A stretch of 64,000 bases of DNA, taken from assembly GCF_963921235.1 (NCBI RefSeq), contig NC_086097.1, positions 150,910,001-150,974,000 on the forward strand, in the 5' to 3' direction. Shown here one piece after another: positions 19,957 through 63,005 of this stretch. The first letter of the stretch is position 1. Each line of letters begins with the position of its first letter. Origin of the DNA: Mobula hypostoma. Its lineage: Eukaryota. The notes beneath the pieces are model-generated. The model saw only the letters and a list, made by a program, of their open reading frames with translations. It searched no databases and was not told the origin of the DNA. The translations under genes were made by a program, and so were the position numbers.

Positions 19957-20142
19957 ACAACACCCACAAAATGCTGAAGGAACTCAGCAGAGCAGGCAGC
20001 ATCAATGGAAAAATGTACAGTTGACATTTCGGGCTGAAACCCTTCGGCAGGACCTGCTGAGTTCTGTCAAAGGGTCTCGGCCTGAAACGTCCACTGTACT
20101 TTTTTTCCATAGAAGCTGCCTGCCCTGTCGAGTTCCTCCAGC

Positions 20143-20202
<60 letters not shown>

Positions 20203-20218
20203 TGTTTGTGTGTTTGTG

Positions 20219-20302
<84 letters not shown>

Positions 20303-20338
20303 GCTTGGATTTCCAGCATCTGCAGGCTTTCTCTTGTT
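19957..20338. mobile_element. Inverted pair of Penelope-like termini with two decayed hammerheads
   Basis: 19957-20053 is the reverse complement of ~20061-20150 plus 20300; possible TSD GGGATGAG / GGGACGAG (19947, 20341). Confidence 0.8.
20145..20300. repeat. (TG)n microsatellite, ~155 bp, imperfect
   Basis: Seen directly; expanded from the short TGTGTG in the PLE terminus. Confidence 0.98.
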
Positions 20339-30224: not shown

Positions 30225-30333
30225 ACAACACATACAAAACACTGGAGGAACACAGCAGATGATCTCTGCTGAGTTCCTCCAGCATTTTGTGTGTGTTGCT
30301 CGGATTTCCAGCATCTGCAGCTTTCCCCTTGTT
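30225..30333. mobile_element. Miniature fold-back Penelope-like terminus
   Basis: ACACATACAAAACACTGGAGGAACACAGCAGA is the inverse of TCTGCTGAGTTCCTCCAGCATTTTGTGTGTGT; the 3' tail is present on one side only. Confidence 0.75.
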
Positions 30334-32734: not shown

Positions 32735-32855
32735 TGAGAAGAAGGGTCTCAGCCCGAAATGTCAACTGTTTTGTTCCCTTCCATGGACCCTGCCTGACCT
32801 ACTGAGTTCCTCCAGCATTTTGAGCATGTTGCTTTGGCTGCAGAATTTCTTGTGT
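32735..32855 (+). mobile_element. Penelope-like terminus with decayed hammerhead
   Basis: GAAGGGTCTCAGCCCGAAATGTCAACTG...CTGAGTTCCTCCAGCATTTTG. Confidence 0.7.
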
Positions 32856-35074: not shown

Positions 35075-35160
35075 GTTCAGAAAATGCTGGAAGAAGTCAA
35101 CTAGTCAGCATCTATTGATAGAGAAGCCAATTGACATTCTTGGCCAGGGACTCTTCATAG
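35075..35160 (-). mobile_element. Old Penelope-like terminus remnant
   Basis: AAAATGCTGGAAGAAGTCA..AGCATCTAT..TTGACATT..GGCCAGGGACTCTTCAT. Confidence 0.5.
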
Positions 35161-35482
35161 GTGGCCAGGTAGCTGCAGAAACAGCAACTGGAATTTAACC
35201 CAGAGGTTTTTTTTTATCACCTAGAGTTGTAGAGGCCTCTCTACCTCTATTTAACACAGAGAAGTAGGAGTTCTTTTTTTCACCTAGAATGGTAGAGGCT
35301 TTGCGCTCATTAAGTCTAAGGTTGAGGCAGAAACACTGGTCACAGTTAACAGCATAGAAGATAGAATATAGAATATGGAGAAGCATAGCACAGTAACACA
35401 CCATATCTGCACCGACCACGATGCCAGTCTAAACTATACACATCTGCCTGCACGTGATCCTTCTGTTCACTGCCCCTTTATG

Positions 35483-41580: not shown

Positions 41581-41805
41581 CAGTGCAAGACATAAAAAAA
41601 ACTACAAATTTCAAATAAATAAACAAACAAATAATGGAAGAGGAATAACAAGGTAGTGTTCATGCATTCATGGACTATTCAAAGAGAGAAAGAAGCTGTT
41701 CCTAATATAAAGAACAGGAATTCTGCAGATGCTGGAAATTCAAGCAACACACATAAAAGTTGCTGGTGAACGCAGCAGGCCATGCAGCATCTCTAGGAAG
41801 AGGTA

Positions 41806-41843
41806 CAGTCGACGTTTCAGGCCGAGACCCTTCGTCAGGACTA
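41806..41843 (-). ncRNA. Minimal type-I hammerhead ribozyme motif
   Basis: Reverse strand: UAGUC CUGACGA AGG-GUCUCGG-CCU GAAA C GUC GACUG; intact core, stems I and II, loopless palindromic stem III. Confidence 0.8.
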
Positions 41844-41886
41844 ACTGAAGGCACAGTTAGTAAGAGATTTGATCTCTTCCTTCAGT

Positions 41887-41924
41887 TAGTCCTGACGAAG
41901 GGTCTCGGTCTGAAACGTCGACTG
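41887..41924 (+). ncRNA. Minimal type-I hammerhead ribozyme motif
   Basis: UAGUC CUGACGA AGG-GUCUCGG-UCU GAAA C GUC GACUG (one G-U pair in stem II). Confidence 0.78.
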
Positions 41925-44719
41925 CACCTCTTCCTAGAGGTGCTGCCTGGCCTGCTGCGTTCACCAGCAACTTTTCTGTATGTTGCTGTTCCTAATATGT
42001 TAAGTGTGGGTCTTCAAGCTCCTGTACCTCCTCCTTGACGGTAGTAATGAGAAGATGGCATGTTCCAGACAGCGAGGGTCCTCGATACAATCTTCTTGAG
42101 GCACCACCTTTTGAAGGTGTTCTCGATGGTGGGGAGGCTTGTGCCAATCATGGAGGTGCTGAATCTACAAACATCTGCAGCCTCTTCTGGGGTCCATCCC
42201 AGGCAGTGATGTGACCTGTCAGAATGCTCTCCATTGTACATCTGTCAAAACTTGCTTCAAAAAGAACTACCTTTACAGGGACATGTTGGTAACATATTTC
42301 CACCAGCCTTACTATTCTATTTAGAATACTTGATCTGCAGAAATTGGTTGGCAGGTACAGGGGAGAGTGAATTAGAACATTTTTGGAATTAGGTGTAATA
42401 AAAGATGAACAACCACATTGTCGTATTTTTCATCAGTTTTAATTTTGTTTCTACTGTTCCCATTAGTTCTCTTTTAGCATTTTTAACTTCAGTGGTTACT
42501 ATGGGTTGAATCCTCTCAACTTCATTTTCATTAATTGTAACTTTGACAACGTAAAGTGATTTGAAGCAATAATACTATTTTGTACAATAGTACCCAAAGA
42601 GGTGATTCATACTGAAAATTTTAGATCCTTAACTGTCAATATGAGTAACGTAATTAGAAGAGTAGGAAGTTTTGCATCAGTGGGTAATGAGAGGACCAGA
42701 ACAGTGAAGAGATGTGAAGCAGTTTCTCTTTGCCTTTTGCTGATTTACGCATATGTATTTTCCCCGACCGCTGAGAAGCTGAAGAATAACAACTTGTGAA
42801 GTACAATTTAAGTAAACTTTCGTCAGTTAAGAAAAACATACCTGGTGGGATTGTGACAAAGGCCACTGCTGTAGTGTGATAATAAATGACTGTTTTTGAG
42901 TACTTTTTTAACTGTATTGATACATATATTGGTCCACAAGGTGAATCTGAGAACTGGTGGTTGAAGTTTCTGAGCTTAAATAAAAGGATTCTCGATTTTC
43001 TGGTTACCTAATGACTGTGAAACCAATGCAATGCTTTTTGCATACAGTTCGTTGACTCAAGCCGTATGGAGAGACTCTGTTCCCATAACCAAGTTTGTGC
43101 CAAACTTGCCCTGAAAGTACTCTCTCTTGCTGTAATCAGCTTAGCACATAAAATACGTAGAGGAAGGGATTTCCTCTGACTGCTGGAATACTTGATAATA
43201 TATATTGAACATATACCTCTTCAGAGCCATACATTAATATTTAATGCATTGGCTCTCTCAATATGTTCGAACATGTAATCTTTCATTTCCATCAGCGGCA
43301 TTCAAACAAAGCTCTGAAAGAAAACAGGATGAAAGACTCACTCTTTATTGTTTGCAATTCAGACTCAAATTATCCCAAGTTTTTTCTGTCTAATTCTAAT
43401 GACAATTGACACAAAGCTGCTTTTATACAGTGTGATAAATTCACTTAAGGAATCTACAATTTGCACAATGTATCTCAATTACTGACCTTATTTTGCTGAT
43501 GTATAATTTTTTAGGACAATAGTGCTCATAGTTTTTCCAATACTTGATTTGTGAAGCAAATTCTGTCATTTTCACAACTGATGTAAGTTCATTTTCTATA
43601 TCCTGGGGACAAATGAGGACTCCATTCATCTTTGCTATTCTAGACATTGATGACCAAATCACACATCCAGTTAAAGCACCTTTATTGTCCTTTATTTTAA
43701 AAAAATCTTGTAAAATGTGCTGATACCTAAAAGTCAACAGGGAATAGTTGTCCCTGAAACCAAAATCCAACAATTAAATCTTTCTCCTGAAGTCTGCTGA
43801 CTTTTCTTTGCAAGAACTTCACCAGATACTAGTTAATATAGTCTGGGTTTCCAAGGGACAGGAGGTCACATATCTCAAGGAGAAATTCCAATAATGTGAT
43901 TAACTCCAGGCAGAACGAAATGGCAAGCTGAATATAGCTGCTCATGCCCCGAAGTAAACTACCAAAGCACCTGCTGCCTACTGGGACTGTTGCACGCTGG
44001 ACTGCTTGCTGCCTTGAAGATCGTGTAGCTAAGTCTGTATGGTACTCCACAGGGGAAATATCTTAGATAATGAGAATTGGTTCAGAATATTGAAAAATGA
44101 GCAGTATTACCCAAATGAAATTTGTAAAAAAATGCTTTCATAAATCATGAATGCTCTTTTAAATACACTCAAGCTGTTGGAAACAAACTTAATGACACTT
44201 TCTTACTGAAAGTGGAATATACTATAGCATAGCACTGTGGAATTATAGAACGATACACCTAGAAGGATGCCATTCACCCCTTTGCAGTTGATGGTGGAGC
44301 TACTCAATTAATCCCTCTTTCATTCTTGTCCCACAGCTCTCTAAAATGTTTCCCTTCAAGGGTTCTTTAAATTTCATCATTGAATGTGCTTTTCAGGGAA
44401 TGCAATGTAATAAAATAATACAGTGGGTAAAAAAATGTTTCCCCACTTTCTATTTATTTTGTCAATCACCTCAATTGTGTTCTTTGGTTAATGGTTCTTC
44501 TGTGCTTCCCCTTATTTAATCCACCAAAACATTTCTAAATGTTTTATATTGTGTATTTAGTAGATTTTAGGACCATTGAACTTTTATTTCATTGCGAATG
44601 TTACCTGCCAGTTAAGAAAGATGGAACGGAGTAAATCTAGCAACTATATGCCAGATAATCAGCTTATCTCAGGTGACATTTTACCTTGTGCAAAGCACAT
44701 TCCTTCTTCCTAAGGTGTG

Positions 44720-44960
44720 TCCAGAATTGTGCACAGTCTGCTCATTCCCCTGTGAGCACATGAGCTTTCTGAGTCCTCTCGCTTCCCAAAGACATTCAGG
44801 TTGGTTGGCCAAATTTCCCCTTGAGTTTAGTTAAGATCTGAGGGAACTAATGGGAATGTGAGGACAATAAAAATGGATCAAAGTAGGATGAGTCTAAGTG
44901 GATGGTTAATGGTTGATACAACTTGGTTGGCTAAAGGACTTGTTTCCATACTCATGACTT
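44720..44960 (+). mobile_element. Decayed V-SINE
   Basis: CATTCCCCTGTGAGCACATGAGCTTTCT..TTCCCAAAGAC V-domain; CR1-like 3' end. Confidence 0.5.
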
Positions 44961-45621
44961 GATGACCCCCTAGGGTCATAAAACTCCAGCAAATTCTTAA
45001 CACATGCTTTATAAAGATGTTGTACTTGCTTTTGTACATTATACTTTAATAGACAAGATAAAAATCTCATATGCTGCTGTCTTCTCAAATATATTTTGCA
45101 ACTTTAAAATATCATGTACCTCAGTTCCTGGATGCGATGCATAATTGTAAACTGTAGTTTATACTGTCTCTCCAAAATGTAAAGCAACTGTTTGTCACTA
45201 ATATCTGTTTACATCACTTAGCTAGATTTATCCCTAGTCGTCTGTTGACTTTTTAAACTGATGGACCTGAATTTTACTAATGGTGGAATCTATGTATTTG
45301 AACCTGTCTCATTTTGAGACTCCACGTACACTTCAACTGCAACTCTTTCAATTATACCCTACATTAACTCTACAAATAATCCTATCAATTTGGTGAAATA
45401 AAGTTTTACCACTAACAAATAAAAATTCATGTATCCCAATGTCTCTCAACCATATAAGGGAAGATATATTGAACTAAATTCAAATATTTAGGTATCAAAT
45501 TCACTCAGAATATTGGATTACATGTACCTATAAATATACTAGCATTACTTTTTTAATCTCAAAACATTTTAATTTATTTATGTATGTGTTTGGCCCTGCA
45601 AAGACAATATTATTTGCCTAT

Positions 45622-45830
45622 TCCTGAGTTCAAATCCAGCCGGCTCCCCTGCACGCTTTCCATCCGTGCTGGGTTACGAGCTGGTGATCTCTTTGGAAAC
45701 TCACCCGGTGGAAGGCAATGGCAAACCACTGCTGTAACTTGCCTTGTACGCGGTTCCCCACTACGTCAGAGAGGCATGGAGGGAAATCATCCGCTAACCG
45801 GAGAAACTCCGGATGCGACGTACCTTTCCT
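45622..45830 (+). mobile_element. tRNA-derived SINE with RTE-type 3' part
   Basis: GAGTTCAAATCC B box; head shared with the 49455 family; GAAGGCAATGGCAAACCACT motif; (CCTTT)n tail. Confidence 0.65.
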
Positions 45831-46824
45831 TTTTCCTTATTCCCAATTGCCCTTAAATAACCCATTATTTGTTTGCCATGGACTATACAGTGAACTTGCC
45901 ACTAAATGGGGAATCTAATCCAGTGATGATGAAGACAAACAATCAATTTTTAAATCAGAATGATGCATTTGTGCATAATATTATAAATGATACTATTTGC
46001 ATTCACCTGCTGTCTTTGACCTTCCAGCTTGTGTACTGGGAGATGTGTAAAGTGTAATCCATCATGGGGATAGTCGGCACGATAGCTGGGGTGCATCAGC
46101 GGTGGAAAGAGTGCTTAAAGTGATGGATGGGGTAATCAAAAGAGCTTTTTTTTCCCCAGAATGGTGTAGGATTTCTTTATTACCAGAGTTGTAGTCATTC
46201 ACACAAATGGAATTTTTAAAAAAATCATATTTCTGGCAATGATGGTGGGAAAGATTTGGAGAGTCAAGGGAAAAATTGCTCACTGCAGAATATCCAAACA
46301 TGAACCAGTTTTGATGCAATTTGTCAAGGGAAGTTTCTGCTCAGTGGTGATTTCCGATGAATCCAAGCAATAAAAGCAATTAGAGTATGTTTGGTGTTCT
46401 TTACCTGATAAATGTGTGGTGTTAATACTGCTTGCCAGTAAACATTGTCCAGATTTATCTGTAGGTATGAATTCCTTTAAGATCTGAGGACTTTTAAATG
46501 CAGCACAATCACAAATTCTGGTCTAGCTTGAAGTACAACCGCAGTGATATCCTGGGACTGAGATGACTGGGTCCCCAAAAATCCAACATATCCTCTGGCC
46601 CACTACAATTCCAGATGGTTGAGAGTTTTCTGCTGATTCCCATTTTCGTAAGGCTTTTTGATATTCTTTGACACCACAATTGGACACATATTGCTTTGAG
46701 GTCGAGGGCAGACACTCCCACCTCACTTTTTCTAAGAAATGAGCAGCTTCTCAAAAGGTTCCACTTATAGAATTTAAGTCCAATCTAAACATTCAGACTG
46801 CTGGGGTGATGTTGCTGAACCACT

Positions 46825-47000
46825 GGGCAGTGTTGTAGCATAGCAGCGAGTGCAAAACGTTACAGCACTAGCTGTAAGCCTTGGGTTTGGTTCCTGCTGC
46901 TGATATAAGGAGTATGTGCATTCTCCCTGTGACCACAGGAGTTTCCTCCAGGTGCTCCAGTTTCTCTCACATTCCAAAGATATATGGTTAGGGATAGTGA
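46825..47000 (+). mobile_element. HE1-like V-SINE
   Basis: GTGCATTCTCCCTGTGACC..GTTTCCTCCAGGTGCTCCAGTTTC..ACATTCCAAAGA. Confidence 0.65.
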
Positions 47001-47014
47001 GTGAGTTATAGTAG

Positions 47015-48685
47015 CTTTGGACACCGTCATTAGGAGATTTGTCAGGCTAATTCCTTGGATAAGAGGGACTCTCTTTCAAGAGAGGATAGGCAGTTTGCAT
47101 TTGTGTTTCCATGGGCTGATCAGCTGGCTGGTGAGTTCAAAGATTACATTAACCTCTTGCTTTGGCAGTCTGAGATACCCACCTGTTTCAAGCGGGCTTC
47201 AATTTTACCAGTGCCTAAGAAGAAAGTGATAACCTGTCGCAATGGCTATCATCCAATAGCTCTTACATTGTCTGTGAGGAATTATATCAGCTCCAACCTG
47301 AGAAGCAATTTGGATCCAGTCCAATTTGCCTACCGGAGCAACAGGTTCACAGTAAATGCCATCTCATTGGCTCTTTACCTAACCCTGGAACATCTGGACA
47401 TCAAAGATGCATACATCAGGAAGGTCTTCATCAATTACAGCTCGGCTTTCAATACCATCATGTTCTCAAAACTAGTCAATAAGCTTCAAGACCTGGGCCT
47501 CAACACTTCCTTGTGCAATTAGATCCTCTACTTCCTCACCTGCAGACTGCAGTCAGTTCAAATTGGCAACATTATCTGCTCCACAATCTCCATCAGCTCA
47601 GCTGCACCACAAGGCTGTGTGCTTAGCCCCCTGCTCTACTCACTTTACACTTACGACTGTGTGGCTAAGAACAGCTCCAATGCCGTAGTTATGTTTGCTG
47701 ACAACACCACTGTCCTTGGCCGAATTAAAAGTGGTGATGAATCAGCATATAGGAGGGAGACTGAAAATCTTGCTAAAAGATGCCACAACAACAACCTCTC
47801 ACTCAATGTCAGCAGGACCAAAGAGATGATTATTGACTTCAGGAGGAGGAAACTAAATGTCCGTGAGCCAATTGTCATCAGAGGATCGGAGATGGAGCGG
47901 GTCAATAAGTTTAAATTCCTCCAGGTTACCTTTTCAGAAGACTTATCCTGGGCCGTCATGTAAATGCAATTATGAAGAAAGTACAACAATGCCTCTACTT
48001 CTTTATTAGTTTGTGAAGATTCAGCATGACATCTAAATCTTTGACAAAGTTCTATAGATGTGTGGTGGAAAGTATATGGACTAGTTGCATCATGGCCTGG
48101 TATGGAAACACCAATGTCCTTGAATGGAAAATCCTACAAAATGTAATGGATACAGCCCACTCCATCACGGGTAATGCCTTCCCCACCACTGGGCACATCT
48201 TCATGGACAGCTGTCATAAAGGACTCTCACTACATGCTTTCTTCTCACTGTTGCCATCAGCAAGAAGGTAGAGCCTCAGGACTCACACTACCAGGTTCAG
48301 AAACAGTTGTTATCCCTCAACTATCAGGCTTTTGAAGCAGTGGGGATAACTACTCAACTTCAGTCACTCCATCACTGAACTGTTCCCACAACCTATGGAC
48401 TCACTTTCAAGGGGACTCTTCACCTCATTTTCTCAATATTTATTGCTTATTTCTTTGTTTGTTTGTTTGCTTACTTATTTATTTTTCATTTTCTTTTTAA
48501 TTTCCATGGTTTGTAGTCTTTTGCACATTGGTTGTTTGTTCATCCTGTTGGGTGTGGTCTTTCATTGATTCTATTATGTTTCTTGGATTTACTGAGTATG
48601 CCCACAAGAAAATGAATCTCAGGGCAGTATATGGTAACATATATTCACTTTGATATTAAATTTACTTTTGAATTTTTGAACTTTG
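47015..48685 (+). mobile_element. Rex1/Babar LINE, 5'-truncated, degenerate RT
   Basis: IPTCFKRASILPVPKK..YHPIALT..LDPVQFAYR..FINYSSAFNTI; LSPLLYSLYTYDC..FADNTTVLG; 3' tail TTTGAACTTTGA. Confidence 0.9.
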
Positions 48686-48729
48686 AGGGAGTTTAAAAGA
48701 ATGAGATGTGTCCTTATGATCAGCGAGCT

Positions 48730-49040
48730 TGTCAGGTTAGATGCTGAAATGTTTTCACAAGTGCGGCTGGGGCCATGAACAAAGAGATACAGCTACAAAA
48801 CACGTGGCCAGTCATTAAATACTGAAGTGCTTGGAAATTCCTTCCCCTAGTGAATCTCTGGAATTCTCTGCCCCAAGATGATGGCGGAGGCCAGATCCGC
48901 AGAAGTATTTTTGGTGGAGATAGATAAATACTTGATAAATTGAGGAATTGATGGTTATGGGGAACTGGCACAGAAGTGGAGTTGAGGCCAGCATAGATCA
49001 ACCATGATCATATTAAATGGCAAGCTCGAGGAGCCTAGTG
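48730..49040 (+). mobile_element. CR1 3' end
   Basis: GTGAATCTCTGGAATTCTCTGCCC...GATCAACCATGATCATATTAAATGGC. Confidence 0.65.
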
Positions 49041-49454
49041 GCTGATGTTTACATGAAGTTCAATATACTCACATTGTGGAATATAGATCAAAATATGATC
49101 ATGATGTTCTAGCAGTGTATGGAAATAATTTTTTTTTCTGTACAACTTGTTCTTGCATACAAGATTCATCAGTTTCAGAGATTATTCCAGTGGGATGTCC
49201 TCTTTCTAATAACAGTCTGTCTTCTTTACAGTGTTCATTATCATTAACTAAACCTATTGCTTTTTCCTTCTTTAATTTTACCAGAATTCTAGTTCATTAC
49301 TTTTAACTCAAAGGGATATACTTCACACATGTTTTGTGTGTTATTTTGTTGGTGTGTATCAAGTTAGCTCAAGCGTGCCCTTGCACAGTGCAGCTTTCAG
49401 CCTTTGTCAAACATTTCAGCGTGTTAATTGTGGTGCTCTTATTCCATGTTATCC

Positions 49455-49660
49455 AGCCGGTGGTGTAGTGGCATCTGCACCAGACTTCGAGGCGAGTGGT
49501 TCCAGGTTAGACTCCGGCTGCCTCCTCCTACGCTTTCCATCCATGCTGGGCTGAATGTCAAGTTAGCAACTCGGCCTTGTAGAAAAACAGACAAATGCTA
49601 AAGAATTGGCAATTGCCACCCGATGTGCCACAAAGGCACAGAGAGGAACAACAAAACAAC
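49455..49660 (+). mobile_element. tRNA-derived SINE with (CAA)n tail
   Basis: GGTGGTGTAGTGG A box and GGTTAGACTCC B box; same family as 57612-57800. Confidence 0.7.
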
Positions 49661-50062
49661 ATTATTCCGTACCGAAGGAATGTTTGAAAGGCCAGGCTTT
49701 ACTTACATCTTAAAGTAAGATTCTGTATAATCTTTGAGTTGATGTTAACAACCCTTAGGGATTATTTAAGTGCTTTAAGAGTTCTCTTGCTATTCTTGCC
49801 AGTTTTCATATTTCAGACATGACTATAGAAAGCATAAAAACTTCTCATCGCAAAGAAAATTCATAAGGCCTATAGGCACAGCTATGCTGCTGCATCTTTT
49901 GTGTAATGTGGTTTTAAAGATCTTGATGCAATAAGGCATTAATGTTAATGCAAACAATAAAGCTGGGCAACACTTCATGCCCACAATGTAAATTCAAATC
50001 CAATCTGATCAAATCAAATGGAAGCCTCTTCAGTTTGCTACATCAAATGTGAAACTGACTTG

Positions 50063-50258
50063 TGTTAATGCTCAAACCAAAAAGACAAGTTTTTCTTTCA
50101 TTTAAACAACTTTACTTTCAACGTCTCTGTTCAATACATAAGGGCTGGCACCTTAATGCCCACAATCCTCCCATTCTCCTCTGGCATGCATGGCCATGAC
50201 AAGGAAAGTGTGCATGCCTACTAAATATTTACATAGTCCAAATGAACGGAACTTAACA
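50063..50258 (-). repeat. Copia 3' LTR (196 bp), preceded on the minus strand by PPT AAAAAAAGATGGGAGAT
   Basis: Direct repeat of 54157-54358; purine tract at 50259-50275 (minus). Confidence 0.9.
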
Positions 50259-50445
50259 ATCTCCCATCTTTTTTTATGTATATATTAAAGTATAAAGTAT
50301 AAAGTATATTTAAAAAAATAAATTGAAAAGAAAATTTAAAGACAATTAAAATGTCCGTTAGAATATGAGAATTAGTTCTAACCCTTAATCTTAATACAGT
50401 TCTTAATGTAGCAAATGCCTTTAACAGCATAAGAGCTGGCACCCC

Positions 50446-51815
50446 CTACTTTGTGAGGCAGTCAGCTAGATGTTCCTTTTTAGTTGACCATAGCACATGA
50501 TGAATTTTCTGCGCTTGGACAAGTTCTTTGATGTTGCTTATCTCTAGACAAAGCCTCTTCTCTGTAACTGACTTGGTGGATTTGATGGCATCAACCAAAG
50601 AGTAGTTGTCAGTGACGCAAGTTATTGGTAGAGTGTTCGTCTTTGGGTCACCATGGAAAAGCTCAGAACAGAGTGAGGCCAGATAAACAGCATTGTCAAT
50701 ACCTTCAGATATTGCATGGGTTTCTCTTGCCAGTGTACTACATACAATTCTTTGGATCCTTTTTGATTGCCAACAGTACTCCATCTGGAAGATTTCCAAG
50801 TGAGGTATCACTGAAGACAATGTGCTGTTGAAACATCAGGACTACTTTTTCAGATTGAATCTACACACTATCTAGTTTGCCTCATGTAAAGATTGCACTG
50901 CATTATTTTTTTGTACTGGATGCCAAGTTGCAGGCATCAAACATGATGTCAAGTCTGTTCTGCCTTGCCACCCAGAGAATTTGACCTATCTTTGACCTAC
51001 ATTCCCCCACTTCGGCTTCACTGAGGGATGCATCCTGTGGTGTAGTATGTGAGGATTCCATGTGAATTGTCTGAAGGTTCCTGATGTAGTTGTACTTGGA
51101 GCAGTTGTACTGTTCGCTCATCAACAAGGATGTCTATCCCTACATAGCAGAATCTGTCATGTTCCTCACATCCAACCTAACAGGTTGACTTTGCTGAGAG
51201 GTAACTGTTATGGCAAAGTTTTGTGAACCTCCCAATAGGAAGTCATCTACATGACAGGCAAGTACTCCAATCACGTGACATCCTGAATCCTGCCAGTAAA
51301 AACCAGCTAGACCCACTTGTGACATCTTTACACCTGTTTTCAACATTACTTTCTTGACCTTTTTACACCAGCAGAGTGATGCATCTGCTAGACCATACAC
51401 ATAGTTTCTGAGTTTCCAGAGATTTCCTTCACTTCTGGCTTCAGAGGTGGTTTAATGTGAATGTCACGGGACAGCTCCATTCTCTGTAAGATTGCGAATC
51501 TTATGTCCATGCAATGCGGTTGCCGATGCTCTTGATATATCACTAAGAGAAGCAGTCAGGGAGACTCTGATGCATATGTTGGTGAGTCTTTTTGGAGTTC
51601 TTTATGTTCAGTTCCTCAAAACCTCTAGTCACCGGGCATGCTTTTGGTATAATTCCTGTTGGGCTTTCTTTCAGGGTGCACGCCCATCTTGTAGACACTG
51701 TCTTTAGGCCAATGTTTCTGCCTTCCTCATACACTCCATTAGTTCTCCAAATACTGATTTCATTCTGTTTTGCAGATTCAAATGACACCTCCTTAGTTAC
51801 AAGGACAGCTTCCAC
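50446..51815 (-). pseudogene. Copia RT-RNase H remnant with frameshifts
   Basis: ORF pieces 51543-51815 (KQNEISIW...STRWACT.K..PKA..VTRGFEE), 51140-51400, 50903-51127 (KIGQILWVARQNRLDIMF) and 50446-50820. Confidence 0.88.
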
Positions 51816-52059
51816 TTGACATCTCTCGGTGGTCCAGCCTGATCTTTACTTGGTTCAATATGAAGTCTGTCTACACGTGACAGGTTGTCTGACTCTGCAG
51901 TGCCAGTAACTCTGGCTGGTTCTAGGTAATTCAAGTTTCACCAACTTTTGTTTCTCCCAGTGACTTTGCCTGCTCGTCTTAAGACTTCAACTTTGTATGA
52001 GATACCAGTGCCTTGGTCTACAAATTTCACAGTTTGTCCTGTTTTAAACTTAAAACTCA

Positions 52060-52772
52060 TGTAGCCCCCCTGGCAAGCCTCAGGGTTGCTCAGCTCAAGG
52101 TCATCTAGGGAAACAGCCCTCGGCCCCACCAAACTGGGTAATTAGTTTGTGTGGATGCTGTGCGATGTACCCCACCCTGCCCAAATAACAGACAATACAC
52201 CAGATACGATTAAATGAATTACAGTTTATAGATATTATTGGAACTATATAATTAATAGAGATAAAATATAAAAGGAAGATAAAAGGTGCCACACTTATCA
52301 AAGTTCAATCTCTTCGTGCACAAACAGTTGGAGCTCAGGACCTTCCTTCTTCACCCTGTGATCCCCTTGGACCACCTCGACCTGCCGCCTGGGACCAACA
52401 GCGGTGGTCAACCAGACGCTCCACATGAGTCTGTCTCTGTCTCCTCTCCTTGCCGAACACCCTGGACCTCGGACTCCTGCTCGGGGTCCAACCCTGTTAG
52501 CCGACTCACAGCACCTCGTCCATCCTCTCTCTCTCTCTCGAGCCTTCTGCCCAAAAACCCACGCATCACAATAACTTACAGACACACAGAAAGAATAACA
52601 TCTATCCCAATTGGTTCGTACATCCTCTTATCAATAACATAATCCAAACAAACTGCTAGCGGGAGGACTTTCTCAGCAGTTAACATAACAAAGAATCCAA
52701 TTCAATTATAACATAACAAAGAAGCCATTTTAATTAGCCTACGCAGTAACGTAAAAGAAGAAACCCCTTACA
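52060..52772 (-). mobile_element. Solo LTR (713 bp, Gypsy-type) nested in the Copia element
   Basis: TGTAGCCCCCC...CCCCTTACA inverted termini; 4-bp TSD CTCA / CCCA. Confidence 0.8.
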
Positions 52773-52916
52773 CCCATGTTGTCTTTGCTCTTGCGATGAT
52801 TTTTGTTCAGCCAAGTCTGTTGAATCCCCAACTGCACTCTCTTCAGCACTGTCTGTGCTATTTGGCACTGTATCAGGTAAGTTCTTTTCATTTCTTATGC
52901 TATTCTCCATAGAGTT

Positions 52917-53600
52917 CTAGTAGTCTTCATTCTGTGTTTTACGTAGACTGGAATGATGCACTCCAGCATAGGTACCTCCATGTCTCGTGAATACCACAAT
53001 TACATCCTGACCAATGACAACTCCAGAACCTTCCCATTCTGTAATGTCTGCTCTTTTGAAATACACTCTGTCCCCTATGTCATATTTGTCATTTGTAGGA
53101 GGGACCTGTGCCCTCAGTGCTGTTTGAATTCTCTCTGGACACTCTGCTTCAGCGAAAACCTTCCTTGATGCATGTAGTGCTGAAATATGCTTCCCAACCC
53201 ACTCACTCCTTGTAGTGCCCTCTAGAGCAGGTGGTTTGTCAGCCTGTACAGATGGAAGGTTTGGATTCTGGCTAAACACCAACTGATACGGGCTGTAGCC
53301 GTGAGCATTGTGCCTGGTATTGTTTGCCACAAGGGACCAGCCCAGTGCTGTGTTCCAATCACAGCCATTGCTTTTTTCTTTACCTTCAGAATTATTTCAG
53401 TAAGCATTTGATTGTGTCACTCTAGAAGTCCATTACTCCAAGGACTGTATGCTGCTGCTGTCTTTCTCTCAATGTTAAAGTTCTCCGCCTTATCTCTGAA
53501 TTCATCATTATTAAGTTCACCGCCATTATCACCGAATACCTTCCGAGGTAGGCCTTGTAGACTGATTCAGGATTGGATGAAGTTTTTTACTATCTGTACT
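52917..53600 (-). pseudogene. Copia integrase core and C-terminal remnant
   Basis: DNGGELNNDEFR..ENFNI..TAAAYSPWSNGLLE; GYSPYQLVFSQNPNLPS; YDIGDRVYFKR..WEGSGVVIGQD. Confidence 0.85.
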
Positions 53601-53649
53601 TGTTTATTGGATTTGTGCCAGGTAATGATACTCTTGTCTGGTCAATTTA

Positions 53650-54143
53650 GGATCTACGCTTGTGACTCTTGTTTCTGCTCAGTGAAGTATGCCATTTCCT
53701 GACTCAAACTAATTCTGACTGTTGTCTTAGCGGCCTTTTCTCCAAAAATCCTCTTTAGAGCTGATTTCATAGATGCACATGTAAGTTCTGTACTTTGCAG
53801 TTATCGTTAAGTGTCTGTTCTTTATGTCTAGATACCCAGTATCCAACAACTTAAAAGCCAACACTGTGTCAGGAAGTTCCAATTTGTATTTACACTTGTA
53901 ATAGTACTTTTGTTCAAAATCAGTAATATAATCAGTCATATTTCTAGAACTATCCCTGTAAATTTTGTCTAAGTCTGAACATGCATCATAAATCCAATCC
54001 TTTACTTCTTTCAAAAAAAAATCAAATGTATTTATTAGCATAAGTCTTCGACTGAAATTCCCATATTCCGATTTCATTTTTTCCAGCTCTCGTTAAGGTT
54101 TGCTCTCATTAAATGCCGGCAGGATCCTGTAATTGGAAACCAT
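53650..54143 (-). pseudogene. Copia gag remnant
   Basis: ATG at 54143 gives MVSNYRILPAFNESKP, then a frameshift; ORF 53727-54077 MTDYITDFEQKY..KLELPDTVLAFKLLD. Confidence 0.75.
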
Positions 54144-54155
54144 CCGCTGCTACCA
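54136..54155 (-). promoter_or_regulatory. Primer-binding site for initiator tRNA-Met
   Basis: TGGTAGCAGCGGATGGTTTC one base inside the 5' LTR; differs at one position from the complement of the vertebrate tRNA-iMet 3' end (TGGTAGCAGAGGATGGTTTC). Confidence 0.88.
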
Positions 54156-54156
54156 C

Positions 54157-54358
54157 TGTTAATGCCCAAAACAATAAAGACAAGTTTTTCCTTCATTTAA
54201 ACAACTTTACTTTCAACTGCTCCATTTAATATGTAAGTGCTGCCACCTTAATGCCCACAATTCACCCCCCCCATTCTCTTCTGGCATGCAGGTGCATAAC
54301 AGGGAAAGTGAGCATGCCTACTAAATACTTACACCCGCCAGATGACCAGAACTCAGCA
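54157..54358 (-). repeat. Copia 5' LTR (202 bp)
   Basis: Direct repeat of 50063-50258. Confidence 0.9.
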
Positions 54359-54414
54359 ACTTGGACAGTGTCAATTATTCCCTATCAACAAAGACCCTTA
54401 TTCAGTGTTAGCTG

Positions 54415-54650
54415 TTCAAAGTTCCAAGTAAATTTGTTTTCAAAGTACACAAAGGTCACCATATACTACTCTGAGTTTCATTTTTTGGCAGATATTCACA
54501 GTAGATGAAAAGAAATACAATAGAATTGCTGAAAAACTATACACAAAGGAAGACCAACAACCAAGAGAAGACAAACTATGCAAATAAAAAGCAAATAATA
54601 AAAAAACAAACAAATAAACATATAATACGTACTAATAATTTGCAATAATA
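54415..54650 (-). mobile_element. Rex1-type 3' UTR fragment
   Basis: GTTCAAAGTTCCAAGTAAATTTG..TCAAAGTAC tail as at 35483 and 3567. Confidence 0.6.
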
Positions 54651-55606
54651 TTTGCAGAAAGCCATGTTGGTACCATCTGGATCGTTCTGAATTTTTGATG
54701 CATTGCTACAGTATAGAGAGATCTTTGCTCTATGTTTGGCCATTTCATACTTCCTTGAAGATGCTATTAAGTTCATGTAATGGAAAACCTTTTGTCCTCC
54801 AAAATTTACATTTTCTAATTTGGGGAAGGTAAAACTTAAAAACTAATGAAGAATCCTACAATTTTTAAATTTTTATTTCACCTGCACCGTTTGCTAAAGA
54901 GTGAGCAAATGCAAACTGACTATTTCGAAATTCCGGATGTATCACATCTCTATTTAACTCATGCAAGTAAAATAACATGCCTGGGGCAGCATATGAAAAT
55001 CTGTCTATTCCTTTCCTACATAATTATGTTCCAGGAACCTTTTCATTGCTGATCATGACTACAAGCACTTTCACAGATTTAAGTAGCAAGCATATACCCT
55101 TTGTTCTTTGTTTTTTATATAAAAGTTTTTTTTAACATTGATGTTCTTCATATATATCTCCAGTGACTCTATAAAGCAAAAATGTCAATTAAATCTTCTC
55201 CATTTGATTGAATCACTAACTATAATACTTGATTTGTTATCATAGTCTTTTTTTCACATTTCCTTACATCACAGAAGATGGGCATTCAGCTCTTGCGTCT
55301 GTGCCAGAGCCATCCCATCAATCCCATTTCCCTCCTAGTTTCCCAGCAACCCATTCTCTGTATGCTCCTTAAATCCTCCAGGATTCCACAACCACCACCC
55401 ACATTTAGGGCTACATACAGTAGCCAATTAACCTACCAAATGGCGCAACCTTGTGGAAGGATGTGGAAGGAAGTAGAGCATCTGGAGGAAACCAATGCTT
55501 ACAAAAGGAAAACAACAGGAATTCTGCAGATGCTGGAAATTCAAGCAACACACATCAAAGTTGCTGGTGAACGCAGCAGGCCAGGCAGCATCTATAGGAA
55601 GAGGCG

Positions 55607-55644
55607 CAGTCGACGTTTCAGGCCGAGACCCTTCGTCAGGACTA
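55607..55644 (-). ncRNA. Minimal type-I hammerhead ribozyme motif
   Basis: Reverse strand: UAGUC CUGACGA AGG-GUCUCGG-CCU GAAA C GUC GACUG. Confidence 0.8.
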
Positions 55645-55942
55645 ACTGAAGGAAGAGTGAGTAAGGGATTTGAAAGCTGGAGGGGGAGGGGGAGATGCAA
55701 AATGATAGGAGAAGACAGGAGGGGGAGGGATGGAGCCAAGAGCTGGACAGGTGATAAGCAAAAGGGATACGAGAGGATCATGGGACAGGAGGTCCAGGAA
55801 GAAAGACGGGGGGGGGTGGGGGGGTGACCCAGAGGATGGGCAAGAGGTATATTCAGAGGGACAGAGGGAGAAAAAGGAGAGTGAGAGAAAGAATGTGTGC
55901 ATAAAAAAGAGTAACAGATGGGGTACGAGGGGGAGGTGGGGC

Positions 55943-57044
55943 CTAGCGGAAGTTAGAGAAGTCAATGTTCATGCCATCAGGTTGGAGGCTACCCATACGG
56001 AATATAAGGTGTTGTTCCTCCAACCTGAGTGTGGCTTCATCTTTACAGTAGAGGAGGCCGTGGATAGACATGTCAGAATGGGAATGGGATGTGGAATTAA
56101 AATGTGTGGCCACTGGGAGATCCTGCTTTCTCTGGCGGACAGAGCGTAGATGTTCAGCAAAGCGGTCTCCCAGTCTGCGTCGGGTCTCACCAATATATAA
56201 AAGGCCACATCGGGAGCACCGGACGCAGTATATCACCCCAGTCGACTCACAGGTGAAGTGATGCCTCACCTGGAAGGACTGTTTGGGGCCCTGAATGGTG
56301 GTAAGGGAGGAAGTGTAAGGGCATGTGTAGCACTTGTTCCGCTTACACGGATAAGTGCCAGGAGGGAGATCAGTGGGGAGGGATGGGGGGGACGAATGGA
56401 CAAGGGAGTTGTGTAGGGAGCGATCCCTGCAGAATGCAGAGGGGGGGGGAGGGAAAGATATGCTTAGTGGTGGGATCCCGTTGGAGGTGGCGGAAGTTAC
56501 GGAGAATAATATGTTGGACCCGGAGGCTGGTGGGGTGGTAGGTGAGGACCAGGGGAACCCTATTCCTAGTGGGGTGGTGGGAGGATGGAGTGAGAGCAGA
56601 TGTACGTGAAATGGGGGAGATGCGTTTAAGAGCAGAGTTGATAGTGGAGGAAGGGAAGCCCCTTTCTTTAAAAAATGAAGACATCTCCCTCGTCCTAGAA
56701 TGAAAAGCCTCATCCTGAGAGCAGATGCGGCGGAGACGGAGGAATTGCGAGAAGGGGATGGCGTTTTTGCAAGAGACAGGGTGAGAAGAGGAATAGTCCA
56801 GATAGCTGTGAGAGTCAGTAGGCTTATAGTAGACATCAGTGGATAAGCTGTCTCCAGAGACAGAGACAGAAAGATCTAGAAAGGGGAGGGAGGTGTCGGA
56901 AATGGACCAGGTAAACTTGAGGGCAGGGTGAAAGTTGGAGGCAAAGTTAATAAAGTCAACGAGTTCTGCATGTGTGCAGGAAGCAGCGCCAATGCAGTCG
57001 TCGATGTAGCGAAGGAAAAGTGGGGGACAGATACCAGAATAGGT
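55943..57044 (-). pseudogene. PLE polyprotein C-terminal part: RT C-terminus, CxxxxCxxC linker, GIY-YIG endonuclease
   Basis: FLRYIDDCIG (YIDD at 56997-57008), LPFLDL, YYKPTDSHSYL, IPFSQFLRLRRICS; frameshift at the G9 run 56441-56449; then PCKRNKCYTC..FTCESTGVIYCVRCSRCGLLYIGETRRRLGDRFAEH..VATHF..LQPDGMN. Confidence 0.92.
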
Positions 57045-57419
57045 AGGAACAACACCTTATATTCCGTATGGGTAGCCTCCAACCTGATGGCATGAACATT
57101 GACTTCTCTAACTTCCACTAGGCCCCACCTCCCCCTCGTACCCCATCTGTTACTCTTTTTTATGCACACATTCTTTCTCTCACTCTCCTTTTTCTCCCTC
57201 TGTCCCTCTGAATATACCTCTTGCCCATCCTCTGGGTCACCCCCCCACCCCCCCCGTCTTTCTTCCCGGACCTCCTGTCCCATGATCCTCTCGTATCCCC
57301 TTCTGCCTATCACCTGTCCAGCTCTCGGCTCCATCCCTCCCCCTCCTGTCTTCTCCTATCATTTTGCATCTCCCCCTCCCCCTCCAGCTTTCAAATCCCT
57401 TACTCACTCTTCCTTCAGT

Positions 57420-57457
57420 TAGTCCTGACGAAGGGTCTCAGCCTGAAACGTCGACTG
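57420..57457 (+). ncRNA. Minimal type-I hammerhead ribozyme motif
   Basis: UAGUC CUGACGA(57425-57431) AGG-GUCUCAG-CCU GAAA C GUC GACUG; predicted cleavage after C57452. Confidence 0.8.
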
Positions 57458-57611
57458 CGCCTCTTCCTATAGATGCTGCCTGGCCTGCTGCGTTCACCAG
57501 CAACTTTGATGTGTGTTGCTTACAAAAGGAGCTAATACAAACTCCACACAGAAGGCATCAGAGGTCAGGATTGAACCAGGGACACTGGATCTATCAGGCA
57601 GCAACAATAAC

Positions 57612-57800
57612 CAATTATTGTTGTTCCTTTCCACACCTTGTGGCACATTGGGCAGCAAGCTTGCCATTTCTTTGGCATTTTTATCTGTTCATTACGAGGC
57701 CGAGTTGCTAGTTTGATGTTCAACTCAGCACAGATGGAAAGCGTGCAAGGAGCTGGCCGGATTTGAACCATGGATCACTTGCTTCGCAATCCAGTGTGGA
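57612..57800 (-). mobile_element. tRNA-derived SINE (same family as 49455-49660)
   Basis: GAGGCCGAGTTGCTAG..CAGCACAGATGGAAAGCGTGCAAGGAGCTGGCCGGATTTGAACC. Confidence 0.7.
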
Positions 57801-57844
57801 TTAACTTATTATTGCTTTCTTCCTTATTTGCTAAACCAAAATGT

Positions 57845-57890
57845 ATAATAATAATAATAATAACAACAGCAACAACAATAATAATAACAA
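57845..57890. repeat. (TAA/CAA)n microsatellite
   Basis: Seen directly. Confidence 0.9.
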
Positions 57891-58612
57891 ACCTCTTCCC
57901 AGAAACAGAAGGGTTCCTTGTGGCAATACAGGACCAGGTGGTTAACACAAAAAATATCAAAAATGCATCATAAAAGATCAACAGATTCAAGATGATAAAT
58001 GTAGAAAATGCTGAGAAAAAACAGAAACAATCCAACACATTACAGGATCCTGTAACGGTTTAACACAATCTGATTACTTACACAGGCACAATCAAGTGGC
58101 AAACATTATTCATTAAAAGCTTGCTTTAAAATACAAAGTCACAAATGAAATCACACTTTACTATACATGCAGGTCTGATCCAGTCTTAGAATCAGAATAC
58201 CACAAATTATATTATGACCGATCAGTTATTACAGACAAGACAATCCATAAATACCATCCAGATATAATAATACGGGATAAACAAGCAAAAACAACTTGTT
58301 TAATAGATATGGCCATTCCAAGCACACATAACCTACAGAAATCAATCAGTGAAAAACACCAGAAATATGCTGAAATAAAAGAGAAAATTGAAAGTTTTTG
58401 GAACACGAGCAAGTCTACATTGTCCTGATAGTAATATTTACAACTGGTATCCCAATAGCATTAAACAATTAGGGCTGCACAGTAATATTTATGTAAATCT
58501 TCAGAAAGCCTCTAGAATAGTCCAAAAGTTCCTAGCAATTGACAAATAAGTGTGTTTGGCTATGTCCGTACCTCAGGTTTTATCAGCTTGAGTTGAGAAA
58601 AAATAAATAAAA
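57891..58612 (+). mobile_element. R4/Dong-clade non-LTR retrotransposon 3' fragment (CCHC knuckle and RLE endonuclease), degenerate
   Basis: LFPETEGFLVAIQDQVVNTKN; DKCRKC..ETIQHITGSC; YLHRHNQVANIIH; HPDIIIRDKQAKTTCLIDMAIP; EKHQKYAE. Confidence 0.85.
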
Positions 58613-59720
58613 ATAATAACATATTTATGGTGCACTTTTCACACAAACAGTGTATCAAATTGCTTTACAATGGGATAAATGGCAAACATGAAAATAAAAA
58701 ACAAAAAGATGTTCGTTAAAAGCAAGTTTAACTAAATAGATTTTGAACCCACGTTTAAAAGTATCAACTGAGTGTGCGTCCCTTTATTTTTAGGTATTGA
58801 GTTCCACGGTTTAGGAGTGTAGTTCAGAAAAGCTGACCTGCTGATTTTCTTTTGAGGAAGATTGTTTAAATTTAAGAGACAAACGGAAGAAGACCTGAAG
58901 GCCGCAGCGGGGTTATGAAACAAAAGCACTTCTGTGATGTACCCAGGTCCCAGACCTCTGAAAGGTTTAAAATCAAAGAAGGGAAATTTAAAATCAGTTC
59001 TAAAAGATACAGGAAGCCAATGCAAACACGAGGAATTCTGCAGATGCTGGAAATTCAAGCAACACACATCAAAGTTGCTGGTGAATGCAGCAGGACAGGC
59101 AGCATCTCTAGGAAGAGGTACAGTCGACGTTTCAGGCCGAGACCCTTCGTCAAGACTAACTGAAGGAAGAGCTAGTAAGAGATTTGAAAGTGAGAGGGAG
59201 AGGGGGAGATCCAAAACGATAGGAGAAGACAGGAGGGGGAGGGATGGAGCCAAGACCTGGAGAGGTGATTGGCAAAAGGGATATGAGAGGATCATGGGAC
59301 AGGAGGTCTGGGGAGAAGGAAAATGGGAAGGGGGGGAAAAACCCAGAGGATGGGCAAGGGGTATAGTCAGAGGGACAGAGGGAGAAAAAGGAGAGAGAGA
59401 GAGAGAGAGAGAAAGAATGTGTGTATATAAATAAATAACGGATGGGGTATGAGGGGGAGGTGGGGCATTAGAAGAAGTTAGAGAAGTCAATGTTCATGCC
59501 ATCAGGTTGGAGGCTACCCAGACGGAATATAAGGTGTTGTTCCTCCAACCTGAGTGTGGCTCCATCTTTACAGTAGTTAGGTCAGGACTGATATGCTCCC
59601 TCTTCCTGTTTTTCATTAAAAATCTAACTGCAGTATTCTGAATGAGTTGAATTTTGTCAGTAATTGCTTTGGAAGGCCAGTAAAAAGTGCATTGCAGTAA
59701 TCTAGTCTATTCAATATAAA
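58613..59720 (-). mobile_element. L2-clade LINE 3' end, interrupted by a PLE
   Basis: LHWLPVSFRTDFK..FRGLGPGYI..RSAF...PKPWNSIP (end of ORF 58732-59490); 3' UTR TGTAAAGCA.TTTG..GTGTGAAAAGTGC..TAAAT. Confidence 0.8.
59024..59575 (-). mobile_element. Penelope-like 3' end / pLTR, sister subfamily of 55510-57521
   Basis: Colinear with 55512-56050; hammerhead at 59121-59158 carries a core substitution (UUGACGA). Confidence 0.9.
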
Positions 59721-60609
59721 GGCATGAATTAGTTTTTCAGCATCATTTCATTTGATGTGGGAATATGATGAGCTTCATTTTGCCAAAAGTAGTGGTTTGA
59801 CAGCTAGCATTTAAAGATAAATTTATCAGTACAGCAGGGAGTTGTAATGCCTGACACTTCAATGGAGTCTCTTCATGAAGAAGTGGATTGTGAGACAAGC
59901 TGACACAAAAAAATGTATGTACAAAGAGTGACTTGTTCAGAAGAAGTAGCATTTTCTAAATTATTCTAAGACTTCATGTTTCTTCGGCATTTGTTTTACC
60001 TCCTTAGCTGAGAGTAGGTTGTCCTCCTGAAAGCAATTAATGTGTTATCCTTGGTAGATACTTAATATAACTGAGTGACTTGCTGAGTGATTTCGGAGGG
60101 CAGTTAATAACTACCCACTTAAAGTGTTTCTTAAGATGCAATGAAGCCAGAGAGATTAGGGATATAAATTTCCCTTTCCTAATAAACACAATGTGAAAAC
60201 TGTGCTTGGTTTTATTACTTGCCTGTTAGTAATTAACAGCTTTGATCTGAAAATCTCTTGAATCAATGGTAATCAGAATCACAAATACTCTGTGGTGAAA
60301 ATGGTTAAAGAAATATCTAAGACCACTGGAAATCAACATGATGATACTGGATTAAACTTCCTGTCTGCCTGATATCTGTGGGGTGGGTGGGCACGATTAA
60401 ATTAAATGAATAATTCCGCAATTCTTAAATCAATGCTGCAAGTGTCCTGTGCTGACCTTACTATAAACTGTTTGATACATAATTATGCCAGTCCATCCCA
60501 AACCATATATCTACATCTAACGAGATAAACAGTTAGGGATGGACTAACATGATTATGCATCAAATAGTTTATAGTAAGATTATAATAAGATGTACATAAA
60601 TCTTATTAT

Positions 60610-60710
60610 AATTTATAGTTTTTATTATTATGTATTGCAATGTACTACTGCCGCAAAATGACAAATTTCATGACATATGCCAGTGATATTAAACATGATT
60701 CTGATTCTGG
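60610..60710 (+). mobile_element. Rex1-type 3' tail
   Basis: ACAAATTTCATGACATATGCCAGTGATATTAAACATGATTCTGATTCTG as at 3497-3545 and 40489-40545. Confidence 0.65.
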
Positions 60711-61104
60711 ATCTTTCCTGAAGAAGGACTGAAATCTTGTGTAATAGTAACCCAGTAAAGGAGCTATATTACCTAATCATAGCAGAATTTGTATGCCATC
60801 GTTTATCTTCGTATTCACTTCACTACATTATCTAGATATTGACAGTGACAAGTTTTCCTACTACTCCACTAATTCCTTCCTGCGCCAGCCTGTGTTAATT
60901 ATAGTTCCTCAATTTTGCATGTATGTCACCCGTGATTTCATCCTTTGTGCAGCACTCTATGTTATCAGTGTTAAATTTTTGCACCTATCTCTCCATCTAG
61001 CAAATATATTGATTCAAATCCTTCCAGAAATTGTTAATATACTCCTGTTCACACCATCTGCAAATTGCAGGTGGTAACAATCCACAGCTAACGTATCAAT
61101 GAAG

Positions 61105-61213
61105 GAACATACATCAAAGTTGCTGGTGAACGCAGCAGGCCAGGCAGCATCTATAGGAAGAGGTGCAGTCGACGTTTCAGGCCGAGACCCTTCGTCAGGA
61201 CTAACTTCAGTTA
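61105..61213 (-). mobile_element. Short PLE terminus with intact hammerhead motif (61166-61203)
   Basis: Near-identical to 55547-55647. Confidence 0.85.
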
Positions 61214-62439: not shown

Positions 62440-63005
62440 GTATAGAAACAGGTCCTTTAGCCCATATAGTCTGTGCCAGCACAAGGAAATCTGCAGATGC
62501 TGGAATTTCAAGCAACACACATAAAAATTGCTGGTGAACGCAGCAGGCCAGGCAGCATCTATAGGAAGAGGTACAGTCGACGTTTCGGTCGCCAAGACAT
62601 TTCTGTGCCAGGCAGCTTTTCAGTCAACCCACACCCGGGCCGTAGCCTCCCATACCCCTCTCATTCAGGTACCTATCCAAACTTTTCCTAAATATTGCCA
62701 TTGAACCTGCACTCATCAACTCCGCTGGCAGCCGTTCCACTTCACACCACCCTCTGAGGGAGGAAGGTCCCCATCAGATTCCCCATAAATATTTCACTTT
62801 TCATCCTTAACTCAGTGTAATTCTCACCCAACCTCAGGAGGAAGAGCCTGTGTGTATTTACCCTATCTATACCCCTCAGAAGTTTGTATAGCTTGATCAA
62901 TGCTCCTCTTATTCTCCTCTGCTCCATTGAATAAAGTTACTCAACCTTTCCCTATAACTCAGGTCTTCAAATCCTTGTAAATTTTCTCTGTACTCTTTCA
63001 ATGTT
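62440..63005 (-). mobile_element. CR1 3' end
   Basis: EQRRIRGALIKLYKLLRGIDRV (62742-62927). Confidence 0.75.
62480..62601 (-). mobile_element. Short PLE terminus truncated inside the hammerhead
   Basis: TSD TCTGTGCCAG at 62470-62479 and 62602-62611; homology ends just after GTCGACGTTTC. Confidence 0.85.

Follow-up and report, generated by a model that had tools for sequence, protein, structure and literature searches.

Minimal hammerhead ribozyme motifs at the ends of a putative Neptune-type Penelope-like retroelement in the ray Mobula hypostoma

The minimal hammerhead ribozymes (min-HHRs) of metazoan Penelope-like elements (PLEs) were described in 2014 by Cervera and De la Peña (PMC4209133). 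Min-HHRs are type I motifs in pseudo-long terminal repeats (pLTRs), with a short stem I, a loopless palindromic stem at positions 15.2-16.2 and an extra nucleotide after A9, and they occur mostly as single dispersed copies and in close opposite-strand pairs. They were reported from the Xena, Poseidon and Neptune elements of fish. The loopless palindromic stem III and the resulting need for a dimer were already part of that description; monomers were inactive and dimers cleaved weakly. Here, we analyzed a 64,000-nucleotide stretch of the genome of the ray Mobula hypostoma (assembly GCF_963921235.1, contig NC_086097.1, positions 150,910,001 to 150,974,000 of the forward strand; hereafter the window), in which such motifs lie in the pLTRs of a putative Neptune-type PLE. 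The structural and positional traits listed above are shared by the ray motifs. Two traits differ from the published ones: the ray stem II has 4 bp, compared to 7-8 bp in the Schistosoma family, and the young ray subfamily closes stem II with a G-U pair, whereas the published motifs use G-C. The main and supplementary text of PMC4209133 that was searched, figures aside, mentions no cartilaginous fish by name.

The Poseidon element PAc of the anole (Frangieh et al. 2024, PMC11167929) resembles the ray element in three ways: its pLTR has the hammerhead followed downstream by a tail of 30-40 nt, there are two 3' ends, which in the ray element recall the two initiation sites of the anole element, and the flanks are AT-rich. 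The open reading frame (ORF) of PAc starts within the ribozyme, whereas the ray element has a Neptune-type linker and an ORF start outside the window. The ribozyme of the anole element, the one PLE ribozyme that has been reconstituted, cut only with the protein of the element, and left no RNA-seq ends at the site. The Neptune clade (Craig et al. 2021, PMC8557442) shares with the ray element a reverse transcriptase (RT) followed by a C-terminal GIY-YIG domain, a CX2-5CxxC linker, 5' truncation and an inverted 5' copy with a tail on one end; in contrast, all copies in the window are truncated and the sole ORF remnant is frameshifted. Non-LTR retrozymes (Li et al. 2026, 10.64898/2026.07.22.740005) likewise carry type I hammerheads of pLTR origin, and the one chondrichthyan genome in that survey was positive. 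However, retrozymes are same-sense tandem units, and none was found in the window, where no ribozyme is covered by any of 11 tandem-repeat rows. Small PLE-associated variants with a short stem III are reported to cleave as dimers (Lunse, Weinberg and Breaker, RNA Biol 14:1499). Our literature search, which did not extend to subscription papers or Repbase/Dfam, found no description of the ray family.

The hammerhead motifs of the window are very probably passengers of a high-copy Neptune-type PLE in this myliobatiform ray, with the dispersed copies mostly inert. Each motif lies near the 3' end of a pLTR, upstream of a tail, in separate insertions that are 5'-truncated and often 5'-inverted. A preliminary description of the same DNA had reported five intact minimal type I hammerheads, one core-mutant copy and six decayed copies, and all of their positions were confirmed, including the strands of the intact and core-mutant (C3U) copies. 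A structure descriptor (the core, stem I and stem II of at least 3 bp each, and an NUH triplet) matched exactly the five intact copies, whereas 200 dinucleotide shuffles averaged 0.015 matches and never gave more than 1. A pattern for the family gave four matches and none in 100 shuffles; it skips position 41892 because of a stem II change in the copy at 41887-41924(+). Against the Rfam covariance models, cmscan to E=10 returned nine matches, none to a hammerhead family, which fits the missing stem III loop. Using the pLTR end as query, nhmmer found 17 matches in the window, one of them at chance level (E 8.6). All six decayed copies (about 2250, 16660, 20018, 20061, 32740 and 35130) were among the 17, four of them with E of 3.3e-5 or lower. 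The other two were weak on the motif alone, with E 0.012 for the copy at 35.1 kb and E 0.17 for the one at 16.7 kb. The latter is supported by a match of 17482-17011 to the ORF end (E 2e-47).

Three insertions account for the five intact motifs; the C3U motif belongs to another one. The largest insertion (55496..57530, with a 14-bp target duplication at 55496/57517) is a 5'-truncated Neptune-type copy with an ORF remnant, a 3' pLTR and a tail on the minus strand. Its 3' pLTR carries an intact hammerhead at 55607..55644(-), with a predicted cut after 55612. The inverted terminal copy at 57045-57521(+), 98% identical over 478 nt, carries another at 57420..57457(+), which has one loop II change and a predicted cut after 57452. 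A short insertion of two head-to-head pLTR ends (41695..41998, 14-bp target duplications at 41695/41985) consists of a half with tail, 41709-41872(-), and a half without tail, 41874-41987(+). The first half carries an intact motif at 41806..41843(-), with C3 at 41838 and a predicted cut after C17 at 41811. The second carries the motif at 41887..41924(+), with a predicted cut after 41919. There, the core is intact and stem II is weakened by C11.3U (+3.1 kcal/mol as a hairpin), with an altered minimum-energy fold. The fifth motif, at 61166..61203(-), lies inside a short insertion (61102..61206, minus strand) that, unlike those of the other four intact copies, contains no inverted twin. The C3U motif, at 59121..59158(-) with the change at 59153, belongs to a separate 5'-truncated insertion (59024..59576, minus strand), which comprises the end of the ORF, the pLTR and the tail and shares 88.6% identity with the 55.5-kb copy.

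A young copy with tail at 62484..62598(-), flanked by a 10-bp duplication (62470/62602), is 5'-truncated inside stem II and has the C11.1 form; it is a seventh young copy, absent from the preliminary description. An older head-to-head pair on both strands at 19955..20338 has broken cores (A6C in one, A6U plus G8A in the other). The older-subfamily copy at 16660..17482(-) combines a decayed endonuclease-coding end with a different pLTR, and its core retains the 5' half and has lost G12 and stem III. The remaining older copies are a decayed hammerhead of the older subfamily at 2255..2281(+), a copy lacking the 5' core at 32738..32857(+) and a heavily decayed copy at 35086..35186(-). Two further nhmmer pieces, 9604-9675(+) and 30266-30334(+), contain only the tail part of the pLTR. 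Target duplications were found at four of the ten boundaries examined (14, 14, 10 and 10 bp), the 10-bp ones flanking the 62.5-kb and 9.6-kb pieces; at the other six, no duplication longer than 6 bp was found.

The coding remnant in the 55.5-kb insertion allowed a tentative placement of the carrier. The C-terminal or thumb part of the RT (56442..57032, minus strand), with an RYIDD motif just upstream in the same frame, is 96% identical to a Mobula hypostoma protein (P0001). After a frameshift, a second frame (55943..56422, minus strand) encodes a CX4CxxC linker and a GIY-YIG endonuclease and ends at the stop that opens the pLTR; the hammerhead lies about 300 nt past this stop at 55943 and is repeated in the inverted terminal copy. 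The endonuclease match to PF01541 (E 2.3e-4, 21.9 bits) falls just under the curated cutoff of 22.6, and this frame is 47% identical to P0028, a full-length relative that carries PF01541. The best protein matches of the ORF come from Mobula hypostoma (96% and 90%) and Hypanus sabinus (88% and 87%), followed by carpet sharks and then by further sequences at about 50-58%. Because the CX2-5CxxC linker is common to Neptune and Nematis and absent from Penelope and Poseidon (Craig et al. 2021, PMC8557442), the linker motif suggests a Neptune-type element. Published PLE architecture normally includes inverted 5' copies, target duplications and, on one end, a tail of 30-40 nt. The ray element matches it in its pLTR, inverted 5' copy, tail and target duplication.

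Public contigs were compared over 311 bases in 4 of 24 runs; these are contigs only, none recorded as RNA. The family is abundant in the related runs, with 5,891 to 31,347 contigs aligned per run, a figure that does not measure copy number. The tail, which is optional and about 35 nt long (55510..55545, minus strand), corresponds to two 3' ends of the element, which recur there as loose ends at 55510 (4/4 runs) and at 55544-55546 (2/4). Three ray and skate gene models (P0002, P0005 and P0111, annotated under host-gene names: chitinase domain-containing 1, divergent protein kinase domain 1C and nicotinamide riboside kinase 1 isoforms) match the element ORF at 66-90% and are either exonised copies or annotation chimeras.

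The ribozyme has stem I of UAGUC/GACUG, and stem III consists of A15.1-C-G-U16.1 without a loop, with exactly two bases (CG) between A15.1 and U16.1 in 5/5 descriptor matches. The type I core order, the loopless palindromic 15.2-16.2 and the extra nucleotide after A9, together with closure of stem II by a G10.1 pair, by which min-HHRs were defined in PMC4209133, are all present. The preliminary view of a minimal type I hammerhead in Penelope-like pLTRs, whose loopless palindromic ACGU stem III needs a partner, thus agrees with the published description. On the other hand, its AGG/CCU pairing for stem II is disfavored by the relatives. A metagenome scan yielded at least 121 loci, representing 78 distinct motifs among the matches listed. 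Since the core and stem II pairs 1-2 were set by the scan pattern, only stem I and stem II pairs 3-4 are informative. In the register with an extra A followed by GGGU-CUCG-GCCU (GGGU/GCCU pairing), the unconstrained pairs 3-4 were formed in 133/156 cells (null mean 69, maximum 88), versus 59/156 in the AGG/CCU register for the same relatives. Position 11.1 was C in 62 of the 78 motifs, which mismatches the A of the AGG/CCU register. Folding energy does not separate the two registers (-2.2 vs -2.5 kcal/mol). Based on this comparison, stem II is better read in the extra-A register, which is the published min-HHR form. In the ray family, C11.1 accounts for 21, 29, 61 and 75% of contig depth across the four runs, and the young window copies have G-U.

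The unconstrained stem I paired over at least 3 bp in 42 of the 78 relatives, compared to a mean of 6.3 and a maximum of 16 in 5000 shuffles; because kin remain among the deduplicated motifs, the shuffles overstate independence and the contrast is inflated. A PLE ORF match was found at 10 of the at least 121 loci, and in 8 of these 10 it lay just upstream in the same sense. The ray motif itself was carried by none of the loci listed, and a scan of viral contigs gave no matches. One metagenome contig (L027/L028) has the same layout as the ray insertion: a PLE ORF, a same-sense hammerhead downstream of it and an opposite-sense hammerhead at the other end.

Folding was modelled with ViennaRNA. 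The monomer prefers a rod (-11.0 kcal/mol), in which GACG in the core is paired to CGUC at the cleavage triplet. The double hammerhead with swapped strands reached -11.5 kcal/mol, compared to -22.0 for two rods, -30.3 for an intermolecular rod and -78.0 for a sense/antisense duplex. Four of the five intact copies sit in head-to-head inverted pairs, so that on either strand the antisense twin is transcribed first and the ribozyme should be sealed in a duplex. For the 41.7-kb insert, the predicted hairpin energies are -221 and -223 kcal/mol (z -29 and -24). Within the 2-kb insert (55496..57530), the inverted twin pairs with all 38 ribozyme bases. Same-sense intact copies lie 5.6, 13.8 and 15.5 kb apart. 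The motifs are real but ordinary ones of the self-cutting type at PLE ends, and most window copies would be blocked by their inverted twin. The C3U copy, which had been proposed as a natural control, is unlikely to be clean in a mixed dimer, because in the swapped-strand geometry the core of the partner would be expected to cut its GUC; the accessible text of PMC7151607 gives no rate for a C3U variant.

In the proposed mechanism, two same-sense motifs in an active tandem element RNA would swap strands, and their ACGU palindromes would form a shared 4-bp stem III, so that each core could cut its partner after GUC. Cleavage would probably need the element's own protein, and may serve to trim or circularise the element RNA. 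Selection on the master lineage would keep the ribozyme block intact between subfamilies, and the dispersed copies would be mostly inert, as the monomer rod hides the triplet, inverted twins anneal and CpGs decay.

The contigs gave further information on selection. Loose ends at 55643 (4/4 runs) and 55607 (3/4), which are among the best supported, coincide with the two ends of stem I, and the consensus beyond the loose ends is similar to the sequence that flanks the older copies (2.2, 16.7 and 20 kb). The subfamilies therefore share the ribozyme block and differ beside it. Among the rows listed, the variable places within the block were N7, loop II, position 11.1 and four CpG positions. CpG changes in the ribozyme, each of which disrupts stem I or stem III or affects C17, made up 2.5-15% of depth, versus 4.9-17.6% at a flank CpG. 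The ribozyme values were somewhat lower in most runs, in a rough comparison, since the subfamily mix differs by position. Six older copies retain 172/228 ribozyme bases versus 150/246 downstream bases, a contrast biased by the fact that these copies were found through the hammerhead motif. The pattern points to purifying selection in a mobile master lineage, with decay at CpGs, much like that of the flanks, after insertion.

Two candidate features at the ribozyme edge were rejected. A preferred 5' truncation at the edge or cut site is not supported: contig coverage remains deep in the pLTR upstream, and none of the window copies begins at G1.1. A splice acceptor (a pyrimidine tract plus AG 15-17 nt past stem I, kept in both subfamilies) is not a general feature: 6/40 relatives had an acceptor-like sequence versus an 11% background, after the 38/78 motifs with stems shorter than 3 bp had been dropped. 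No intron-type joint was found among the 15 joints listed of 37 in contigs. Pyrimidine tracts ending in AG, similar to splice acceptors, flank the ribozyme on both sides (55592-55606 and 55645-55660, minus strand). At 55490-55800, T>C on the plus strand (A>G in the element sense) was seen at 15 and 11 places in runs X1 and X5, versus 4 and 4 in runs X21 and X24, among the rows listed; these are different organisms and X5 is probably DNA, so that editing cannot be called.

Several points weigh against a passenger ribozyme that processes element RNA. Cleavage is a prediction from sequence, the contigs compared including none recorded as RNA, and the clade placement rests on a linker motif rather than on a tree. 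The rows listed leave the invariance of core positions such as G8 unestablished. ViennaRNA ignores the tertiary core, and the energy gap therefore overstates how unfavorable the active dimer is. Ribozyme mutants of the anole element inserted no less in vitro (PMC11167929), and some PLE clades have no ribozyme (PMC8557442), which leaves a role in processing unproven even in the model element.

These last observations lead to the possibility, to which we give a minor but real chance, that the master lineage retains the motif mainly because it acts as a signal, structural or protein-binding, or because it hitch-hikes as a parasite of the pLTR, cleavage being unneeded for transposition. In the anole system, insertion in vitro was normal with ribozyme-dead RNA, and most of the substrate was RNA that had not been cut (PMC11167929), and Craig et al. 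suggest that ribozymes may simply parasitise PLEs (PMC8557442). In the window, none of 16 pieces starts at the cut site, and the downstream stem-loop/tail block is covered in related contigs at least as well as the ribozyme. However, the three stems covary around the catalytic core across distant animals, as for a selected ribozyme, and the C3G/G8C rescue in the anole element shows true ribozyme chemistry (PMC11167929). This explanation overlaps the passenger reading on the identity of the motifs and differs only in what is selected. It is very improbable that the short copies are a non-autonomous family of their own (a retrozyme or a miniature inverted element) that moves as a unit. In favor of it, several insertions are only 100-280 nt long, two resemble hairpins in being inverted pairs, target duplications flank some of them individually, and animal retrozymes were proposed to derive from pLTRs. 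However, the 5' ends vary from copy to copy and the 3' ends fall at two tail positions, as in truncated reverse transcripts; the junctions differ between the two inverted pairs, and the tandem-repeat rows mentioned above cover no ribozyme.

The preliminary description had also expected any host transcript crossing the locus to carry several potential cleavage sites. In this explanation, the dispersed copies would form dimers in cis or in trans and cleave pre-mRNAs of the host or other read-through transcripts, which would amount to a load or a regulatory layer. Five intact cores in 64 kb, the abundance of the family in related runs, the 61.2-kb copy without its own twin and with a same-sense neighbor 2 kb off, and ray gene models that absorb ORF pieces, hinting at intronic copies, speak for it. 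Nevertheless, we hold it to be very improbable. The antisense twin precedes four of the five intact copies on either strand, intact same-sense partners are at least 5.6 kb apart, and the CpGs of the copies decay at about the rate of the flank. Dimers had low activity in published work (PMC4209133), 8/9 Xenopus dimer elements stayed uncut and 1/9 was cleaved in vitro, and the anole shows no RNA-seq ends at the site (PMC11167929). No host-gene Pfam domain was found in 273/308 frames of at least 62 aa, a scan that short exons would escape in a window that may be intronic; it returned mobile-element domains, plus ALKBH8_N on two LINE-like RT ends. Host-transcript cleavage by the window copies is thus unsupported, and least improbable for the solo 61.2-kb copy. 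A bolder version, equally hard to credit, is that a young Neptune expansion seeded the ray genome unusually densely with intact dimer-dependent hammerheads, that the element protein, when expressed, could license host cleavage by solo copies, and that inversion acts as an antisense safety catch. If it were true, introns would be depleted of solo sense copies and tolerant of inverted pairs. For comparison with the five motifs per 64 kb in the window, about 4,000 hammerheads per genome are given for the coelacanth and about 9,000 for Xenopus.

The passenger reading extends a known pairing of ribozyme and retroelement, described in other fishes, to a ray family. This family is a young, high-copy test set with near-identical solo, inverted and core-mutant copies, which would permit an orientation-bias test of the cost to the host; no such effect is shown here.

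Other features of the window were also recorded. A 157-nt TG microsatellite (20145-20301) sits exactly at the TG run of an older plus-strand pLTR copy, between ribozyme and tail, which suggests that it was born from the element. The tail-only piece at 30226-30334 has a small 5' inversion of its own, forms a hairpin and gave a spurious mir-1756 match. The Rfam microRNA matches at 41819-41910 and 30226-30298 were rejected, as they are inverted junctions with scores far below gathering. A decayed element at 50074-54359 includes a copia-type RT piece (RVT_2, 51143-51451, minus strand), around which lie LTR-like direct repeats 4.1 kb apart (50074-50259/54169-54359). Decayed gypsy-type pieces on the plus strand comprise an RT RNase H-like domain (23586-23828) and a Tf2-type SH3 domain (24929-25213). 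LINE-like RT fragments (RVT_1, ALKBH8_N) were found at 26667-27821(+), 47034-47963(+) and 6200-7110(-); the ALKBH8_N match probably marks the C-terminal part of a LINE and not a host exon. Finally, 60457-60578 holds an unrelated inverted repeat of 56 bp, whose arms are 84% complementary and separated by a 10-nt spacer.

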